Shown: positions 1-43,317, counted from the stretch's first letter. The stretch: 64,000 bases of DNA from Escherichia coli (GCF_051903065.1 NZ_CP178438.1), one strand, 5' to 3'. The notes: generated from the letters alone by a model not told the origin. Translations and numbers: made by a program.

Positions 1-13
1 TTGAGGTGCTCCA

Positions 14-289
14 GTGGCTTCTGTTTCTATCAGCTGTCCCTCCTGTTCAGCTACTGACGGGGTGGTGCGTAACGGCAAAAGCACCGCCGGACATCAGCGC
101 TATCTCTGCTCTCACTGCCGTAAAACATGGCAACTGCAGTTCACTTACACCGCTTCTCAACCCGGTACGCACCAGAAAATCATTGATATGGCCATGAATG
201 GCGTTGGATGCCGGGCAACAGCCCGCATTATGGGCGTTGGCCTCAACACGATTTTACGTCACTTAAAAAACTCAGGCCGCAGTCGGTAA
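14..289 (+). CDS. insA: IS1 InsA (transposition inhibitor / N-terminal part of InsAB')
   Basis: 91-aa [26 protein letters not shown]... with zinc-finger CxxC...CxxC; recognised as IS1 InsA. Confidence 0.9.
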
Positions 290-711
290 CCTCGCGCATA
301 CAGCCGGGCAGTGACGTCATCGTCTGCGCGGAAATGGACGAACAGTGGGGCTATGTCGGGGCTAAATCGCGCCAGCGCTGGCTGTTTTACGCGTATGACA
401 GGCTCCGGAAGACGGTTGTTGCGCACGTATTCGGTGAACGCACTATGGCGACGCTGGGGCGTCTTATGAGCCTGCTGTCACCCTTTGACGTGGTGATATG
501 GATGACGGATGGCTGTCCGCTGTATGAATCCCGCCTGAAGGGAAAGCTGCACGTAATCAGCAAGCGATATACGCAGCGAATTGAGCGGCATAACCTGAAT
601 CTGAGGCAGCACCTGGCACGGCTGGGACGGAAGTCGCTGTCGTTCTCAAAATCGGTGGAGCTGCATGACAAAGTCATCGGGCATTATCTGAACATAAAAC
701 ACTATCAATAA
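208..711 (+). CDS. insB: IS1 InsB reading frame (expressed as InsAB' by -1 frameshift)
   Basis: 167-aa ORF in -1 frame relative to insA, overlapping it across the A6C slippery site; recognised as IS1 InsB. Confidence 0.85.
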
Positions 712-1393
712 GTTGGAGTCATTACCAACCGCTTAGTGCCAGCAAAACACCCAGCGTCAATCTACTGAATTTCGTTGTCAGTCCAGAGGATTTTCGCAAA
801 TTAACCGTTGATGTTTTACCTACCCTGCGAGTTAATTCCGAGCAGGCCTGAAATACCTCTAGAGTGCAATTCCATATCACGCGATAGATTCTATTCATAT
901 AAACGCTCCATATACAAACAATACAGCCACGAAAGAGATGAGTCGTCAGACATTAAAAATGAAATTTATTAAATTGTCAGAGGTCTGTATTGAGTGTTAG
1001 TTGGAGGTGGGAAAGTGTCAATTTGGCTAATTTGCTAATACTTTCGAATTGATAGATTAAAAATTGCATAGTTCTTATTTCATTTAAAAATGAACTATGA
1101 GTTATTGTTGCTTAATAAGAAAACTGTTTCTTTCAGTAGGAAAATTATCATCATCATATTTAACAAAGAATAGCACTAATTGCTAAAAATCGAAGTTTAT
1201 TAAACCCCTTTTGCATCCATTAATGTCTTTAAGAATATTCGTTATAAAATAAGGGTTATGCTTAATTCTTTAAGAAAAATAGCAATTTTCCCTTGAATAT
1301 AGTACTGGTGATGAAACGATGAATCTGCAAGCTGGCATTTAACAAGCCAGCTCTAAAAGAAGGGAAATAAGAATAACTATACTCAAAAACTAA

Positions 1394-1419
1394 CAGCCAC
1401 GGTCATCATGATGTGGCTG
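1394..1419 (-). terminator. Candidate rho-independent terminator downstream of lsrK
   Basis: Inverted repeat CAGCCAC...GTGGCTG just past the lsrK stop, followed on the minus strand by a T-rich tract. Confidence 0.4.
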
Positions 1420-1428
1420 TCAATGAAA

Positions 1429-3021
1429 CTATAACCCAGGCGCTTTCCATAACGACGTCGTCAGTCCATGATCAACCAGCCCCAGCTGATCCTGATAAAC
1501 TGCCTGCCACTTATCGCGTGAATCCTGATAAAGTTCATGCTTTTCCGGGTCTGGTGTGTGCGTCCGTTCCCAGCGAACCAGGCGTTCTCCGGTTTCTGCC
1601 ATTGATGAAAAAATTCCGGCACCGACGCCAGCTGCAATGGCACATCCTAATGCAGTGGCTTCTTTGACCACCGGAATATTGACGGGTAATCCCGAGACAT
1701 CAGCGAGAATTTGACTCCATAATTTCCCTTTTGAACCTCCGCCTGCAAAGACTAACGATGAAGGATGAATATTCGAAAAATCAGCAATTTGCTGCAAGTT
1801 ACACGCTGATACAATCGCCGCATTTTCTTCCAGCGCACGGAACAATGTCGCTTTGTTACATTTATCCGGGTCAATGGACAAATTAATAAAGGAAGGCGCA
1901 GCGTGATACCAGGTTTTAAAGCGCATTCTGTCGGAGAAGATCGGCATTACGCCCCACGACCCAGGCGGCACCCGACTGGCCATCTCTTCCAGCAGCGTAT
2001 AGGTGTCGATGCCTAAATGTTCGGCAATCAGTTTTTCTTCGGCACAGAAAGCATCGCGGAACCAGCGCATGGTGAGTCCGGTAAAAAAGCTTATAGATTC
2101 AGCTTGTACCATGCCAGGAATAACATGAGGATTAACGCGCACGTTCATTTCTGGGTCTGTCACCGGCGCGGCTAAATTTACAACTTGCTGCCAGAATGTG
2201 CCGCCAAGAACCGCGGTTTGTGCCGGACGCACAACGCCTAACCCCAGGCAACCAAGCTGCACGTCGCCTCCTCCAACGACCACCGGAGTGCCCACCTTCA
2301 GACCGCAGAGTTCCGCCGCTTGTGAACTTACCACGCCCAGCAATGTGCCGGTTTCTTTGACAGGAGAAAGAATATCGGCACGCAGGCCAGCCATATCCAG
2401 CAATGCAGGTTTCCAGTCACGGATGGTTAGATCAAGAAGTCCCGTGGTGCCAGCGTTAGAGGGATCCACCGCAAGTTCGCCGCTGAGCATATAGGCCAGC
2501 CAGTCGCTGATCATGGTGATGGTTGATGCCTGACGGTAAATATCGGAACGATGGTGCGCCAGCCAAAGTAATCTGGGGATGGCACTTAAAGCCAGTGTTT
2601 GTCCGGTCGCGCGATAAACTTCGTTTTCAAAGGTATTGTTGTGCAGTTCTTTAAGTTCGCTAACTTCGCGCGCCGCTCTGGCATCCACATTGGCGCAGGC
2701 CCAGATCGGTGTTCCTTCATTGTTATATAAAACAATGCCTTCACGCATCGAACATGCCGAAACGGCAGCTATATACTCCGGGGCTATGCCGGCGTTGTGC
2801 AACGCCTGGCGCATACACTCACACGCCAGTTGCCAGTTTTTGTTGAGATCAAATTCCATAGAACCAGGAACGTCCGGTACTGCCAGATGCCGCCACTCCG
2901 CCTGTCCCACTGCTATTTGATTGCCTTCCAGGTCGAATATCACAGCCCGAATACTTCCGGTGCCTGCATCCAGCGCCATCAGGTAGTACTTTGATTCTGA
3001 AGGGGTAAAGAGTCGAGCCAT
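1429..3021 (-). CDS. lsrK: Autoinducer-2 kinase
   Basis: 530-aa ORF, FGGY sugar-kinase-like; position and divergent orientation relative to lsrA match the lsr locus. Confidence 0.9.
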
Positions 3022-3099
3022 TAGATTATCCTCGGCTTATGCGTTCTGTCTGTTCCTCTATACGTTCTCCATCATTCCCGGTAATAAGGTCATGCAAAT

Positions 3100-4053
3100 T
3101 TAACTACGTAAAATCGCCGCTGCTGTGTCCTGATCGGTAACCAGTGCGTTGATATAACCGCCTTTCATTGCAGCGGCAATTGCTTCGGCTTTATTTTCTC
3201 CCCCTGCCACGCCAACCCGGACGGGTATGGTCTTCAGCGCGCTTAAAGGTAAGCCAATCAGTTCGTTATGTATTTTGATATCCGTGACAACGTCACCTTT
3301 TGCATCAAAAAAGTAGCCTAAAATGTCGCCAACCGCCCCTTTTCGGCCAATCATTAACTGTTCGCCCTGGCTGATATAACCGGAGCGAATGATCGTCGCG
3401 TCGTCTTGTTGACTCACGGCCCCAATGCCGACAATCGCCACATCCGCTGCTTGCGCGGCTAACAGAACATCTTTGACGCAATTTTCATTTTTTAGCGTAC
3501 GGGCAATGTCAGCGGAGGATGCCCGCAACGGAGCCGGAATAATATTCACACTGCACGCCGCGTTAAGCTGTCCGATACCCGTCATATAAGAACCGACGCC
3601 ACCGGAGAGCGTGACCAGGCGAATTTGCTGTGACGAAATAAAACCACTTAAGCGTTGCAGCGTATTCATGGTTGCCTCGCCAAAACCAATCGCCAGCATC
3701 TGTTGTGGTTGAAGTAAACTCATCAACATATGCGCCGCGCCTATCCCCAGTCGCCCGCCGACATCAGCATCCGCAAGCCCAGGGATCACCCGGACATGTT
3801 GCAGCGAAAACTGACTACGTAATTGTGTTTCATATTCCAGACAGCCTTCAAAGCGAGAATTAATCTGCACGCGAATGATGCCGGACTGATGCCCTTTCTC
3901 CAGTAATCGCGACACTTTCAAACGGGTCAGGCCGAGACGATCGCTGATCTCACTCTGGGTCAGCCCGTCGTGGTAGTAAAACCACGCGATCCGCGCGACC
4001 TGTTCTTCTTCACACATTCCCTGTTCTGAAATTGCCGAATCGTTGATTGTCAT
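3100..4053 (-). CDS. lsrR: lsr operon transcriptional repressor (SorC/DeoR-like)
   Basis: 317-aa ORF with N-terminal HTH and sugar-phosphate-binding C-terminal domain; sits between lsrK and divergent lsrA. Confidence 0.9.
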
Positions 4054-4301: not shown

Positions 4302-5837
4302 ATGCAAACGAGTGATACCCGCGCGTTACCGCTACTTTGCGCCCGCTCGGTTTATAAACAGTATTCAGGGGTTAATGTCCTGAAAGGCATCGATTTTACG
4401 TTGCACCAGGGGGAGGTCCACGCCCTGCTCGGCGGCAATGGTGCCGGTAAATCGACGTTAATGAAGATTATTGCCGGTATTACCCCTGCTGATAGCGGTA
4501 CGCTGGAGATTGGGGGCAACAACTACGTCAGATTAACGCCAGTTCATGCTCATCAGCTGGGTATTTATCTCGTTCCCCAGGAACCGCTGCTTTTCCCAAG
4601 CCTGTCGATAAAAGAAAACATCCTGTTTGGGCTGGCAAAAAAACAGCTCTCCATGCAGAAAATGAAGAACTTGCTGGCGGCGCTGGGCTGCCAGTTTGAT
4701 CTGCATAGTCTGGCAGGATCGCTGGATGTCGCCGATCGCCAAATGGTGGAAATCCTCCGCGGGCTGATGCGCGACTCGCGGATTCTGATCCTCGATGAAC
4801 CTACCGCCTCGCTTACCCCTGCGGAAACCGAACGCTTGTTTAGTCGCTTGCAAGAGCTGCTTGCTACTGGCGTGGGTATTGTTTTTATCTCGCATAAGCT
4901 GCCGGAAATTCGCCAGATTGCCGATCGAATTAGCGTGATGCGCGACGGAACCATCGCCTTAAGCGGCAAAACCAGCGAACTGTCTACCGACGACATTATT
5001 CAGGCCATCACGCCAGTGGTACGGGAAAAACCGCTCTCTGCCAGCCAAAAATTATGGCTGGAGTTACCTGGTAACCGCCCACAACATGCCGCCGGAACGT
5101 CGGTGCTGACACTGGAAAATCTGACTGGCGAAGGTTTCAGGAATGTCAGCCTGACGCTCAATGCCGGAGAAATTCTGGGCCTGGCTGGGCTGGTGGGAGC
5201 CGGACGCACAGAACTGGCCGAGACGCTCTATGGTCTGCGTACTTTGCGTGGCGGACGCATTATGCTGAATGGTAAAGAGATCAATAAATTATCCACTGGA
5301 GAACGTTTACTGCGCGGTCTGGTTTATCTGCCGGAAGATCGCCAGTCATCCGGACTGAATCTCGATGCTTCGCTGGCCTGGAACATCTGCGCCCTTACTC
5401 ATAACCTTCTTGGATTCTGGGCGAAAACCGCGAAAGATAATGCCACCCTGGAACGTTATCGTCGGGCGCTGAATATTAAATTTAACCAACCGGAACAAGC
5501 TGCACGGACATTATCCGGTGGCAACCAGCAAAAAATCCTCATTGCCAAATGCCTGGAAGCTTCGCCGCAAGCATTGATTGTCGATGAGCCGACGCGCGGC
5601 GTGGATGTCTCGGCCCGTAATGATATCTACCAGCTGTTGCGCAGCATCGCCGCACAGAATGTGGCAGTGCTGCTTATCTCCTCTGATCTGGAAGAGATCG
5701 AACTGATGGCAGATCGTGTGTATGTGATGCATCAGGGCGAAATTACCCACTCTGCACTGACCGGGCGCGATATTAATGTCGAGACTATTATGCGCGTTGC
5801 CTTCGGCGATAGTCAGCGTCAGGAGGCGTCATGCTGA
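4302..5837 (+). CDS. lsrA: AI-2 ABC transporter ATP-binding protein (duplicated ABC domains)
   Basis: 511-aa ORF with two Walker A motifs ([19 protein letters not shown]) and two LSGG signatures. Confidence 0.9.
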
Positions 5838-10100: not shown

Positions 10101-10585
10101 GGCGAATTTATCCGGTGCGCCGTAAAACCCCGTCCTTCAGGGCGGGGATATAAGGCGCGGTTTTCCACCTGACCAGGTGTTTGCTGTTGTTCAATGTATT
10201 GGCGGATGACGGATATTGGCGCACCTCCGCAGCTACTGGCAAAATAGCCAGGACTCCACAAAACGCCTTTGTAGTAATACCTGACTGCAATATCTGGTCG
10301 ATCTCGTCGCAGTAACCTACCTGATACGCTTTTGAGGCTGTTTACCAGACTGGATATCGCCAGTTTGGGAGGATAGTTAATTAACAAATGGACGTGATCT
10401 GGTTCGCCATCCATTTCAACCAGTTCAGCTTCAAAATCAGCACATACATTTGAAAAGTAAGTGCGTAGTTTTTCTGTCGCGTCATGGTCAAAAATCTGGC
10501 GTCGGTATCTGGTGACAAAGACCATGTGAACATGCTTCAGGAAAACACAATGCCTTCCACGCCGGATATCTGTTTCTTTTTTCAC
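10019..10585 (-). CDS. tnpA: IS200/IS605-family Y1 (HuH) transposase TnpA; ORF is C-terminally extended past the likely element end
   Basis: Resembles IS200 TnpA including the HVHLL motif (HuH); 188 aa versus about 150 typical, with the last ~30 codons running over the lsrG 3' end. Confidence 0.75.
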
Positions 10586-11880
10586 AGACCAAAATATAAT
10601 TTGACCTGTGAAACGACTACAGGCATTTAAATTCCAGTTAAGACCCGGTGGTCAACAGGAGCGTGAAATGAGGCGCTTCGCAGGCGCATGTCGTTTCGTT
10701 TTCAATCGTGCTCTGGCACGTCAGAATGAGAATCATGAGGCCGGTAATAAATACATCCCTTACGGGAAAATGGCTTCCTGGCTGGTTGAGTGGAAAAATG
10801 CCACTGAAACGCAATGGCTTAAAGATGCCCCGTCACAGCCATTGCAACAGTCACTGAAAGACCTTGAGTGGGCTTACAAAAACTTCTTCCAGAAGCGGGC
10901 TGCTTTTCCCCGATTCAAAAAGCGGGGACAGAATGATGCATTCCGCTACCCGCAGGGCGTTAAGCTCGATCAGGAAAACAGCCGTATTTTTCTGCCGAAA
11001 CTGGGCTGGATGCGCTACCGGAATAGCCGTCAGGTCACGGGTGTTGTGAAAAATGTCACGGTCAGCCAGTCCTGCGGTAAGTGGCACATCAGTATTCAGA
11101 CAGAAAGTGAAGTATCAACTCCGGTTCACCCTTCAGCATCAATGATCGGGCTGGATGCTGGCGTGGCTAAACTCGCCACGCTGTCAGATGGCACAGTCTT
11201 TGACCCTGTAAACAGTTTTCAGAAAAACCAGAAGAAGCTGGCGAGACTTCAGCGACAGTTCAGCCGCAAGGTCAAATTCAGCAACAACTGGCAGAAGCAG
11301 AAACGCAAAATACAGCGACTGCATTCCCGTATCGCAAATATCCGCAGGGACTACCTTCACAAAGTCACAACGACCGTCAGCAAAAACCACGCAATGATAG
11401 TCATTGAGGATTTGAAGGTCAGCAACATGTCAAAGTCAGCAGCGGGTACGGTCAGCCAGCCGGGGCGCAATGTCCGGGCAAAATCAGGTTTAAACCGTTC
11501 GATACTGGATCAGGGCTGGTATGAAATGCGTCGCCAGCTTGAGTACAAGCAGCTCTGGTGTGGCGGTCAGGTGCTTGCTGTTCCGCCAGCGTACACAAGC
11601 CAGCGTTGCGCGTGCTGTGGTCATACAGCGAAAGAAAATCGCGTGTCACAAAGTAAATTCAGATGCCAGGTATGTGGATATACAGCGAACGCCGATGTAA
11701 ACGGCGCTCGTAACATTTTAGCGGCGGGGCACGCCGTTCTTGCCTGTGGAGGGATGGTGCAGTCAGGCCGCCCGTTGAAGCAGGAACCCACCGAAATGAT
11801 TCAGGCGACAGCCTGAACGTAGCAGGATCCTCGTCATTCAGGGCGTGGAGGATGTCAACAGTTTTATCTACAATTGGGGT
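10101..11880. mobile_element. IS200/IS605-family insertion element (divergent tnpA and tnpB); boundaries approximate
   Basis: Y1/HuH TnpA and TnpB ORFs back to back; a similar 17-mer CGTCnTTCAGGGCGnGG occurs in direct orientation at 10131-10147 and 11832-11848, which I interpret as subterminal end structures. Confidence 0.7.
10608..11816 (+). CDS. tnpB: TnpB (IS605 OrfB family, RuvC-like RNA-guided nuclease)
   Basis: 402-aa ORF with RuvC-like motifs ([26 protein letters not shown]) and a CxxC...CxxC zinc finger near the C-terminus; no internal stops. Confidence 0.85.
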
Positions 11881-13786: not shown

Positions 13787-15238
13787 TTAGCACAACGGAC
13801 GTACAGCTTCGCGCATCCCTTTTTCAAGAATCGCATCCAGGTCATTAGCAACCTGCTCGACCAGACCAGGCACTTGCGTCAGGTCCTGCTCCCAGTGGTC
13901 TTTTTCTGCCAACACAATCGCTACCAGTTCCTGGGTACCGATAACACGGTCACGATGCTGGCTCCAGAGTTGCTGATAACGTTCCAGCCAGTGTGCATCG
14001 TCCTGTACCGGATATGTTTCTCCGTTACGCTCACCACGATAGAACGCAATCAATGCCGCTAATGCAAAAGTAAGGCGCGCCGGAAGTGTGCCGTTTGCCT
14101 TCTGCCCTGCCAGCAGCTGCGGCAGGATGCGGGTGCGGAACTTGGTCATACCGTTGAGCGCGATAGACAGCAGCTGATGCTTGATGTACGGGTTACGGAA
14201 ACGCCCGGTGACTGCACTGGCGAAAGATTCCAGTTCATCACGAGGCAAATCAAGTACCGGAATAATTTCTTCGTAGATGGCTTTTTCAACGAATGCGCAA
14301 ATTTCAGCATCGTTCATCGCTTCACCTACGGTATCCAGCCCTGCCTGGAACGCCACCGGCACCAACGCGGTGTGTGCACCGTTGAGTATTGCCACTTTGC
14401 GTTCTTTATACGGTTTAATATCGTCAACAATCAGCACGTTGAGCGGATATTTGTCCAGACGCAGTTCAGTCGCTAAGGATTTCGGCCCCTGAATCACAAA
14501 CAGGTAAAAGTGTTCAGCGGTGTCGAGGAAACCATCGTGATAACCCAGTTCTTCTTCCAGTTTAGCTACTTCATCACGCGGATAACCGGTAACGATACGG
14601 TCCACCAGCGTAGAACAGAAGCTGTTAGCCTGATCCAGCCATTGAATAAATGCTTCTGGCAGTGCCCACTCTTGCGCATAGCGCAGCACCAGTTCACGCA
14701 ACGCGTCGCCATTGTAGTCAATCAACTCACACGGGATGATGATCCAACCTTTATCCAGCGCACCGTTGAAATGGCTAAAACGTTCGAACAGCAGACGGGT
14801 CAGTTTTGCGGGATAGCTTACCGCTGGCGCGTCATCGAATTTATCGCCCGCATGGTAGCTGATACCCGCTTCGGTGGTGTTAGAGAAAACAAAGCGCATT
14901 TCCGGGTTGTGCGCCAGTTTCAGGAATTCATCGTATTCACTGTAGACGCTGATTTCACGATTAACCGAGCGAATCAGACGCGCGTCGCTGACCGCTTCCC
15001 CCTTCTCATTCAGGCCACGGATAATGGTGGTATACAGACCATCCTGCGTGCTCAGTGACGGCGGGAATGAAGTTTCAATCGGACGAACAACGACCACGCC
15101 AGAATTCAGATCGGTGTGCTCATTCAGGAGATCGATTTGCCAGTCAACAAAGGCGCGCAGGAAGTTACCTTCACCAAACTGAATGATACGTTCTGGATAC
15201 TGTGCACCGGGAAAATCGCGACGATTTAGTGTTTTCAC
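13787..15238 (-). CDS. uxaB: Altronate oxidoreductase (tagaturonate reductase)
   Basis: 483-aa ORF, mannitol-dehydrogenase family; K-12 gene order. Confidence 0.85.
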
Positions 15239-26388: not shown

Positions 26389-27576
26389 ATGAACTTATCT
26401 CTGAGACGCTCTACTTGCGCCCTTCTCGCCTCGTCATTGTTATTAACTATCGGACGCGGCGCCACGCTGCCATTTATGACTATTTACTTAAGTCGTCAGT
26501 ACAGCCTGAGTGTCGATCTCATTGGTTATGCGATGACAATTGCGCTCACTATTGGCGTCGTTTTTAGCCTCGGTTTTGGTATCCTGGCGGATAAGTTCGA
26601 CAAGAAACGCTATATGTTACTGGCAATTACGGCCTTCGCCAGCGGTTTTATTGCTATTCCCCTGGAGGACAGCGTCACGCTGGTGGTACTTTTTTTCGCA
26701 CTCATCAACTGCGCCTATTCCGTTTTTGCCACAGTGTTGAAAGCCTGGTTTGCCGACAATCTTTCATCCACCAGCAAAACGAAGATCTTCTCGATCAACT
26801 ACACCATGCTCAATATTGGCTGGACCGTCGGCCCGCCGCTCGGCACGCTGTTGGTGATGCAGAGCATCAATCTGCCCTTTTGGCTGGCAGCTATCTGTTC
26901 CGCGTTTCCCATGCTTTTCATTCAAATTTGGGTAAAGCGCAGCGAGAAAATCATCGCCACGGAAACAGACAGTGTCTGGTCGCCGAAAGTTTTATTACAA
27001 GATAAAGCACTGTTGTGGTTTACCTGCTCTGGCTTTCTGGCTTCTTTTGTTAGTGGCGCATTTGCTTCATGCATCTCACAATATGTGATGGTGATTGCTG
27101 ATGGGGATTTTGCCGAAAAGGTGGTCGCGGTTGTTCTTCCGGTGAATGCTGCCATGGTGGTTACGTTGCAATATTCCGTGGGCCGCCGCCTTAACCCGGC
27201 TAACATCCGCGCGCTGATGACAGCTGGCACCCTCTGTTTCGTCATCGGTCTGGTCGGTTTTATTTTTTCCGGCAACAGCCTGCTATTGTGGGGTATGTCA
27301 GCTGCGGTATTTACTGTCGGTGAAATCATTTATGCGCCGGGCGAGTATATGTTGATTGACCATATTGCGCCGCCAGGAATGAAAGCCAGCTATTTTTCCG
27401 CCCAGTCTTTAGGCTGGCTTGGTGCCGCAATTAACCCATTAGTGAGTGGCGTAGTGCTAACCAGCCTGCCGCCTTCCTCGCTGTTTATCATCTTAGCGTT
27501 GGTGATCATTGCTGCGTGGGTGCTGATGTTAAAAGGGATTCGTGCAAAACCGTGGGGGCAGCCCGCGCTTTGTTGA
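26389..27576 (+). CDS. ydeE: MFS transporter YdeE
   Basis: 395-aa 12-TM MFS ORF. Confidence 0.85.
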   Translation: MNLSLRRSTCALLASSLLLTIGRGATLPFMTIYLSRQYSLSVDLIGYAMTIALTIGVVFSLGFGILADKFDKKRYMLLAITAFASGFIAIPLEDSVTLVVLFFALINCAYSVFATVLKAWFADNLSSTSKTKIFSINYTMLNIGWTVGPPLGTLLVMQSINLPFWLAAICSAFPMLFIQIWVKRSEKIIATETDSVWSPKVLLQDKALLWFTCSGFLASFVSGAFASCISQYVMVIADGDFAEKVVAVVLPVNAAMVVTLQYSVGRRLNPANIRALMTAGTLCFVIGLVGFIFSGNSLLLWGMSAAVFTVGEIIYAPGEYMLIDHIAPPGMKASYFSAQSLGWLGAAINPLVSGVVLTSLPPSSLFIILALVIIAAWVLMLKGIRAKPWGQPALC

Positions 27577-41159: not shown

Positions 41160-42216
41160 GGCTTTGTTGAATAAATCGAACTTTTGCTGAGTTGAAGGAT
41201 CAGATCACGTATCTTCCCGACAACGCAGACCGTTCCGTGGCAAAGCAAAAGTTCAAAATCACCAACTGGCCCACCTACAATAAAGCCCTCATCAACCGTG
41301 GCTCCATAACTTTCTGGCTGGATGATGAAGCTATTCAGGCCTGGTATGAGTCAGCAACACCTTCTTCACGAGGCAGACCTCAGCGCTATTCTGACCTTGC
41401 CATCACGACTGTGCTGGTCATTAAACGCGTATTCAGGCTGACCCTGCGCGCTGCGCAGGGCTTTATTGATTCCATTTTTTCTCTGATGAACGTTCCGCTA
41501 CGCTGCCCGGATTACAGCTGTGTCAGCAGGCGGGCAAAGTCGGTTAATGTCAGTTTCAAAACGCCCACCCGGGGTGAAATCGCACACCTGGTAATTGATT
41601 CCACCGGGCTGAAGGTCTTCGGTGAAGGCGAGTGGAAAGTCAAAAAGCATGGCCAGGAACGCCGCCGTATCTGGCGTAAGCTGCATCTCGCCGTTGACAG
41701 TAAAACACATGAAATCATCTGCGCTGACCTGTCGCTGAACAACGTTACGGACTCAGAGGCCTTCCCCGGGTTAATCCGGCAAACCCACCGGAAAATCAGG
41801 TCAGCCGCCGCCGATGGCGCTTACGATACCCGGCTATGTCACGATGAACTGCGGCGTAAGAAAATCAGCGCGCTTATCCCTCCCCGAAAAGGTGCGGGTT
41901 ACTGGCCCGGTGAATATGCAGACCGTAACCGTGCAGTGGCTAATCAGCGAATGACCGGGAGTAATGCGCGGTGGAAATGGACAACAGATTACAACCGTCG
42001 CTCGATAGCGGAAACGGCGATGTACCGGGTAAAACAGCTGTTCGGGGGTTCACTGACACTGCGTGACTACGATGGTCAGGTTGCAGAGGCTATGGCCCTG
42101 GTACGAGCGCTGAACAAAATGACGAAAGCAGGTATGCCTGAAAGCGTGCGTATTGCCTGAAAACACAACCCGCTACGGGGGAGACTTACCCGAAATCTGA
42201 TTTATTCAACAAAGCC
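41160..42216 (+). mobile_element. IS903-like element (IS5 family, IS903 group), 1057 bp
   Basis: Terminal inverted repeats GGCTTTGTTGAATAAATC at 41160-41177 and its reverse complement at 42199-42216; flanking 9-mers differ (CATTCGCAT versus TTTATGACC), so no target-site duplication. Confidence 0.85.
41192..42160 (+). CDS. IS903-group DDE transposase
   Basis: 322-aa ORF recognised as IS903/IS102-like transposase (…[42 protein letters not shown]…). Confidence 0.85.
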
Positions 42217-43317
42217 TTTATGACCTAAAAGAAGTTCGACAATATAAGGATCCGCCCCCATATCATTAAGCGTAGTGGAAAATGTGCGCCTGAAATCATG
42301 TATGCACCACAAGCCATTAGTATCATGACCAAGACACCTGCATATTCTGTTTGCAGCCCCTGTTATTGTCGCCCTTTGCAAAGCACAACCGACAACATAA
42401 CCGCGATTTTTTGTTTCTGCGTAAAGATTAACGATCCATTGTTTTATTCCGTCAGGAACAGGCCTTACTATAGCCTCCTTGTTTTTGCTGTGCTCTTTTG
42501 GGACTGTCCATACCCAGTTTTTTAAATCCCATTCGTCCCAGGTGGATAGCCTCGCCTCCTGCTGTCGGCAACCAAACACCAGGCAGATAACCATTATTCT
42601 TCGGTTATATATTGATGACAGAGTTAGCAAATTATTACCGTAAGCATAAGACCATACATCAGCGGTTTCATTGATATTAAGAACGCGATCCCTTATACCG
42701 GATGAGCGCCCGACATAACTTACGTTAATATCTCCAAAGGGATCGCACGCGATGTATTGCCTGACGCGACAAAAACGCAACGCCTGTTTGATATCAAGAA
42801 AAATTGCACCAGACATAACAGGCGCATTTTTTTTGATCCTGTCAAAGACGGTAAGCCATGTGTGTAATTTGCACTGTTCTATAGCCATATCACCGATATA
42901 GGGGAAGATATGCTTTTCAAATCGTTTTATTAAATATTCATGCTCTTTTCTGGCTGTTGTGGCGTGATTGTCGTACCAGTAAAACAGCGCATCCCTTACG
43001 GTCACTGGTTGCATAGTTTTTTCGGCAGCAAGTTTTATTTGCCTGCGGGGGTCCAGATTTTCAGCCAGCCATTCACGGCACTGATCACGCATGCGCCTGG
43101 CCGTTGCAAGAGACATGTCAGGATAGCGACCAAGTGTAAGCCATACCGGAGGGGATTCCCTGCCACCAAGACGATAGTAAAAAACAAAGCTGATCCCCCC
43201 AACCATGCTTACACGCACAGACAACCCGCGCCCATCCGCTATTGTTTTTTGTTTGTCCTGCCGTTTTCCGACAAGACTCTTTAACAGTTTGTCACTGAGT
43301 TTGTTTTCAATAGCCAT
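42217..43317 (-). pseudogene. P4-like tyrosine integrase, 3'-truncated by the IS903-like element
   Basis: P4-type N-terminus and HDFRRTF...LLGH box, but the frame runs into the IS terminal repeat before the catalytic tyrosine would be encoded. Confidence 0.8.

Follow-up and report, generated by a model that had tools for sequence, protein, structure and literature searches.

IS1 is said to promote deletions of adjacent DNA, a classical observation of Reif and Saedler in the 1970s. The element is 768 bp long and its target duplications measure 8 to 9 bp (PMC12428005). A multistep pattern in which insertion is followed by an adjacent deletion, with loss of the target duplication, has been documented for IS150 in the long-term evolution experiment (PMC11708052). 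In Escherichia coli K-12 MG1655, the gene order is hipA-hipB-yneO-lsrK-lsrR; yneO (b4696; formerly ydeK/ydeU) is a pseudogene of 5422 nt, and a spacer of 530 bp separates it from lsrK. According to genomic SELEX, the yneO-lsrK spacer contains a constitutive sigma-70 promoter (CTGACA-17-TTTAAT) and carries an H-NS-associated flag (PMC3946193), and a SELEX peak of the RpoS holoenzyme is also located there (PMC5493296). In laboratory evolution, yneO has been reported to mutate repeatedly (PMC7858067), and ydeK to acquire a large insertion (PMC4350175).

We analysed a 64,000-nt stretch of E. coli DNA, hereafter the window, which starts within an IS1 copy and continues toward lsrK. Our main reading, to which we assign a probability of about 0.9, is that the sequence would reflect an IS1 insertion into a yneO/ECSE_1600-family gene, accompanied in some genomes by a later deletion of adjacent DNA, with no large rearrangement of the locus.

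Positions 1 to 726 (+ strand) correspond to nt 43 to 768 of a 768-bp, IS1A-like element. The earlier note on this DNA had placed the end of IS1 at 726, and this boundary proved exact by direct reading, by Pfam and by comparison with the IS1A of K-12, to which 724 of the 726 positions are identical. The right terminal inverted repeat, ATCAATAAGTTGGAGTCATTACC, was read directly at 704 to 726, where it ends in ...GTCATTACC, and it is the sole IS1 end within the window. The first 42 nt of the element, including its left inverted repeat, are beyond the window edge. The element had been described as partial, and indeed only 726 nt of it are visible, but it looks partial because the edge cuts 42 nt inside it: complete 768-bp copies with both ends are present in the relatives ECNB21-M121 (L001) and 23CRST027 (L003), and also in L017, as the same or equivalent insertions.

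The coding parts of IS1 were readily recognized. insA (14 to 289, + strand, 91 codons) matched Pfam Zn_ribbon_InsA (E=1.3e-21) and HTH_Tnp_IS1 (E=4.7e-31), and the insB' frame (208 to 711, + strand), which encodes the catalytic part of the transposase, matched DDE_Tnp_IS1 (E=1.3e-76). The A6C motif TTAAAAAACTC, the site of the -1 programmed frameshift that yields InsAB', was located at 263 to 273 (+ strand). A simulated -1 frameshift at this motif gave a 232-aa InsAB', and a programmed frameshift is annotated at the IS1 transposase of the RefSeq relatives. The element resembles the IS1A of K-12 in insA, insB' and the A6C site; the 768-bp length, seen in the relatives, and the 9-bp duplication, seen in ECNB21-M121, agree with the published properties of IS1 (PMC12428005). 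It differs from IS1A at two positions, both changes being nonsynonymous: at nt 444, T is replaced by G (Ser>Arg), and at nt 558, G is replaced by T (Trp>Cys). These are positions 402 and 516 of the window. The nt 444 change occurs alone in ECNB21-M121 and the nt 558 change alone in 23CRST027. Such a mosaic points to gene conversion or to recombination between copies of IS1, or else to artefacts of polishing. The transposase variant with the Ser>Arg change (WP_103215986.1) is also encoded by LF3-1 and GD33, which are unrelated strains.

Directly beyond the element, an ORF at 722 to 898 (- strand) was assigned to the truncated 5' end of an autotransporter gene of the yneO/ECSE_1600 family. Its product begins with MNRIYRVIWN and matches the N terminus of the reconstructed 1806-aa protein described below. 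It contains an ESPR domain (Pfam, E=1.5e-15), the extended signal peptide of type V secretion. The ORF comprises 57 native codons (727 to 898), followed by a Trp codon and a stop codon that are contributed by the IS1 end, and RefSeq relatives name its product 'ESPR-type extended signal peptide-containing protein', with the C terminus missing. The IS1 target is the 9-bp sequence AACCGCTTA, which represents nt 164 to 172 of the gene, that is, codons 55 to 58, where the signal peptide ends, and its right-hand copy occupies positions 727 to 735. The segment from 727 to 898 is thus the native start of an autotransporter gene, with nothing displaced on the visible side.

This bears on the view, put forward in the earlier note, that some 700 bp of ORF-free, AT-rich DNA follow IS1. 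That description applies to 899 to 1428, which is intergenic and has a GC content of 30.8%, but not to 727 to 898, where the GC content is 43.6% (47.6% for the whole window) and where the autotransporter gene begins. Positions 899 to 1428 form the native AT-rich yneO-lsrK spacer, in which the promoter of the autotransporter gene is located, and the 530 bp of this spacer equal the length of that in K-12. Over 727 to 1428, the window aligned without gaps with K-12, ES5 and ECNB21-M121, with a mean column identity of 98%. The earlier note had proposed an alignment with K-12 and other E. coli to show what had been displaced; the alignment with K-12 and ES5 is collinear, and nothing is displaced. 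The 5' region of the gene together with the spacer was found in 4,256 of 5,426 complete genomes. The AT-rich stretch is therefore a gene start and its promoter, cut by IS1, and not anomalous non-coding DNA.

Several signals were found in the spacer. The published yneO sigma-70 promoter motif, CTGACA-N17-TTTAAT, has a unique match in the 64-kb window, at 952 to 980 (- strand). A terminator-like hairpin followed by a U-rich tract is located at approximately 1389 to 1424 (- strand), directly past the lsrK stop codon, with a predicted RNA folding energy of -17.9 kcal/mol (z = -3.98), in agreement with the lsrK terminator reported in the earlier note. A second small hairpin, AGCTGGC-N9-GCCAGCT, is present at 1330 to 1352, downstream of the lsrK terminator, and varies slightly in K-12 and ES5. 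A scan of 700 to 1500 for consensus promoters and terminators found none; it missed the lsrK hairpin, whose loop is longer than 8 nt, and this hairpin and the published promoter motif were located directly. An Rfam scan of 1 to 1600 (E<=1) gave no match, and a repeat search over 700 to 1450 returned just one weak two-copy match, 19 nt long and AT-rich, which we judged to be due to chance.

lsrK, the gene for the autoinducer-2 kinase, is intact at 1429 to 3021 (- strand, 530 codons). Its product matched Pfam FGGY_N and FGGY_C, and the gene is annotated as lsrK in the relatives. An effect of IS1 on lsrK or lsrR was considered and rejected: both genes are intact, and we infer that they are unaffected because IS1 sits 700 bp beyond the lsrK stop codon and terminator.

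We reconstructed the interrupted gene by removing IS1 and one copy of the repeat from the ECNB21-M121 sequence. The resulting gene of 5421 nt has 1806 codons and no internal stop codon. Its product matched NCBIfam NF011422, the ECSE_1600 family, over positions 1 to 1806 of 1806 with a score of 4121.7 bits, the cut-off for that family being 2335 bits. In Pfam searches, the reconstructed protein contained ESPR, PATR, AC_1/Pertactin and the Autotransporter beta-domain, and the fragment encoded in the window (residues 1 to 57) contained ESPR alone. The reconstructed protein thus has the signal peptide, passenger repeats, autochaperone and C-terminal beta-barrel of a type Va autotransporter of the ECSE_1600/YneO family. 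A putative adhesin function for this family is an annotation-level assignment, drawn from the family name and from an AIDA-I/MisL-like similarity in the C-terminal part.

The earlier note had pointed to a large adhesin-like pseudogene at this position in K-12, and yneO answers to that description. With respect to lsrK and hipBA, its position and strand are those of the gene in the window, the spacer has the same 530 bp, and its 5' end and the spacer are approximately 97% identical to the window. The lesions differ, however. That of the K-12 gene is a frameshift near codon 1290, whereas the window lineage has IS1 at codons 55 to 58, and the ECNB21-M121 gene is otherwise intact. The copy of the gene in ES5 is also frameshifted. 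The yneO-family gene is often decayed in E. coli.

The exact right junction between IS1 and the gene was found in three complete genomes, those of ECNB21-M121, isolated from meat in China, and of 23CRST027 and 23CRST031, isolated from human faeces in Ecuador in a single study. The 58-aa ORF specific to this junction is present on at least 24 NCBI contigs, most of them drafts that break inside IS1; the exact protein matches included a single complete genome. As the same junction recurs in three genomes and on at least 24 contigs, the insertion must have been inherited within a lineage.

The three complete genomes show two states at the other end of the element. In ECNB21-M121, the 768-bp IS1 has AACCGCTTA on either side. 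In K-12 and ES5, the sequence is continuous across the insertion point and contains one copy of AACCGCTTA, and ES5 matches the reconstructed empty site with 0 mismatches. ECNB21-M121 thus carries a simple IS1 insertion that duplicated 9 bp of its target. The right junction is the same in 23CRST027 and 23CRST031, where IS1 is also intact, with 768 bp, but their left end reads ...CGCCAGGTGC|GGTGATGC, with IS1 abutting ...CAATCGCCAGGTGC. Nucleotides 164 to 376 of the gene (213 bp, including the left copy of the duplication) are absent, leaving no duplication. We interpret this loss as an IS1-adjacent deletion that occurred after the insertion, because the IS is retained, one flank is unchanged, the duplication is lost and the precursor state is known. 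This is the same multistep pattern as that of the IS-promoted deletions in the long-term evolution experiment (PMC11708052), which was shown for IS150 whereas the element here is IS1. Directly beyond IS1, all three genomes continue with what remains of the gene, 5.0 to 5.26 kb, and with hipBA and the fimbrial (ydeQRST-type) operon.

The sequence of events may be reconstructed as follows. A complete IS1 transposed into codons 55 to 58 of the type Va autotransporter gene, which is located downstream of lsrK and on the same strand. This original event was a standard insertion that duplicated the 9-bp AACCGCTTA, a state kept in ECNB21-M121. Later, in the sub-lineage of 23CRST027 and 23CRST031, which is the closest to the window, IS1 removed the 213 bp beside its left end, including that copy of the duplication. 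Intramolecular transposition of IS1, or recombination with a second IS1 copy nearby, would give the same product and may each account for the deletion. These near-identical natural isolates, in which the duplication is intact or 213 bp are lost beside the same IS1, provide a textbook example of insertion followed by adjacent deletion.

Two other explanations of the locus were weighed against this history. According to the earlier note, IS1 may mark a larger deletion or rearrangement that displaced the adhesin locus, with 727 to 1428 as residual non-coding DNA. The left side is hidden by the window edge, the lineage is rich in IS1 copies, and elsewhere the genome of the window shows one or more private deletions associated with an IS: at the IS903B element near 41160, approximately 25 kb of prophage are missing relative to 23CRST027. 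Nevertheless, 727 to 1428 consists of the native gene start and spacer, collinear with K-12 and ES5, and each of the three complete genomes with the junction retains, directly beyond IS1, hipBA, the fimbrial operon and no less than 5.0 kb of the gene, so that we regard a displaced locus as highly improbable. What survives of the idea is the loss of 213 bp inside the gene in 23CRST027 and 23CRST031. A simple IS1 insertion flanked by a 9-bp duplication in otherwise conserved DNA, which the earlier note had set against a rearrangement, is the state found in ECNB21-M121.

The 213-bp deletion itself could be an assembly artefact, in which case the whole lineage would have the simple insertion. The two genomes that show it come from a single study, their copies of the gene are frameshifted, and the IS1 transposase of 23CRST031 is annotated as frameshifted, all of which suggests residual long-read errors. 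Such errors are typically 1-nt indels, however, rather than a clean loss of 213 bp that ends at an intact IS1 terminus, and the junction is identical in two separate assemblies. We therefore give an artefact very little credence, and retain insertion followed by adjacent deletion as the explanation for these two genomes.

Whether the genome of the window shares the deletion was addressed through its relatives, as the window starts 42 nt short of the left end of IS1, leaving the left junction outside the view, and the relatives disagree at that junction. We compared the sequences using ES5 and K-12 as outgroups to polarize the changes, and IS1A as the reference for IS1. None of the complete genomes in the collection is identical to the window, 23CRST027 being the closest. 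Over the first 41,159 bp, two differences separate the window from 23CRST027, one at IS1 nt 444 and one at position 27519; over 15,500 bp, seven separate it from ECNB21-M121. Derived states at 5385, 11946 and IS1 nt 558 are shared by the window and 23CRST027, and a change at 14065 is private to ECNB21-M121. Because of these shared derived states, the tree is best drawn as ((window, 23CRST027/031), ECNB21-M121). The shared stem carries at least 3 changes per 15.5 kb, and the private branch of 23CRST027 carries 2 per 41 kb. Judged by the branch lengths only, the 213-bp deletion would very probably have arisen on the shared stem.

The competing view is that the genome of the window keeps the unmodified simple insertion, with the duplication on both sides, as in ECNB21-M121. 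This state is ancestral and has been documented with an identical right junction, and at IS1 nt 444 the window has G like ECNB21-M121, whereas the genomes with the deletion have the consensus T. That nucleotide lies in the part of IS1 nearest the deletion, and one recombination event with a further copy of IS1 could yield both the T and the deletion, which would then be private to 23CRST027 and 23CRST031. On the other hand, the window groups with 23CRST027 by the shared derived changes, and the private branch of 23CRST027 is so short that the deletion is more likely to predate the split. Retention of the simple insertion thus appears rather unlikely, and the phylogeny indicates that the genome of the window probably carries the 213-bp deletion just off the edge, its own left junction being beyond the window. 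This estimate is somewhat lower than that given by branch length because the evidence of nt 444 pulls against it. Any left state other than these two is very improbable, although so IS-active a lineage may have undergone a private rearrangement at this IS1. At position 27519, in ydeE, the window has G and 23CRST027 has A; ydeE is annotated with 1131 nt in 23CRST027 versus 1188 nt in ECNB21-M121, which looks like a premature stop codon private to 23CRST027.

IS1 parts the promoter and the first 57 codons (727 to 980), with the start codon and signal peptide, from the other ~5.2 kb of the gene, which encode the passenger and barrel domains and lie beyond the window edge, and only a 58-residue peptide can be encoded. 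The yneO-family gene is thus expected to be a null allele in the window lineage, which would lack a functional YneO-family adhesin for a reason that differs from that in K-12. This is ordinary gene decay; all its parts are of known kinds and have already been annotated by the NCBI pipeline in the RefSeq relatives.

We also looked for other IS1 insertions in this gene. Seven insertions in the same orientation, from different lineages, were verified by their differing target duplications. Besides that of the window lineage (AACCGCTTA, gene nt 164 to 172), they are found in F404 (GCGTCAATC, gene nt 139 to 147), LF3-1 (GAGTCCTC, about nt 550), DJH_183sputum (GAGGAATCG, gene nt 714 to 722), W137 (CATTATTG, about nt 920), GD33 (CCAATGCCC, about nt 1005) and 2018-02-2CC (ATTATCATC, in the spacer, at 1144 to 1152 of the window). 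A query joining the IS1 end to window positions 727 to 1500 returned 39 records with a nearby IS1 in the orientation of the window, and the mirror-image query returned 33 with IS1 in the opposite orientation, at a number of different spacings. A bias of IS1 toward one orientation in the yneO-family gene was therefore rejected (33 opposite versus 39 same). We estimate that at least 14 apparently independent IS1 events would have occurred in the 5' ~1.1 kb of the gene and the spacer, the counts being uncorrected for clonal inheritance and for selection. A control query in the middle of the gene (nt 2500 to 3273, 54.7% GC) found no IS1 nearby in the same orientation in 4,137 genomes. In 3 of 60 genomes sampled at even intervals, an IS was located within the first 1.6 kb of the gene, IS1 in two of them and IS5 in one.

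IS1 has a regional preference for AT-rich DNA, and its clustering in the AT-richer 5' end and spacer fits this preference. We tentatively propose that the 5' kilobase of the gene and the H-NS-flagged spacer with 31% GC may constitute a natural, population-scale landing zone for IS1, although we consider this somewhat less probable than its contrary. The clustering might reflect targeting of IS1 guided by nucleoid structure or H-NS. Alternatively, it might result from selection for early truncation of the adhesin, for instance to avoid a secreted passenger without a barrel.

The IS load of the relatives was high. The IS1-end query matched ~27 places in ECNB21-M121 and ~36 in 23CRST027 and 23CRST031, the median of the collection being 10 per genome. 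The window lineage is IS-active, with ~27 to 36 IS1 copies and IS-associated deletions both at this locus and in a nearby prophage. In that prophage, an IS903B-like element (IS5 family) at approximately 41160 to 42216 interrupts a tail-fibre gene, and it is associated with a deletion because, past the element and with 23CRST027 as the reference, the window picks up this prophage again ~25 kb farther on. The junction near 41160 was found in no complete genome of the collection. An integrase of 371 aa truncated at the junction (42202 to 43317, - strand) is encoded by only two draft contigs, e.g. GCA_036912935.1. Finally, lsrG and tam are separated by an IS200/IS605-type element, at approximately 10175 to 11816, whose tnpA is partial and whose TnpB/InsQ gene is intact. 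It is present in the relatives of the window and absent from ES5 and K-12, and 3 or 4 of the 7 differences between the window and ECNB21-M121 fall in it or next to it.
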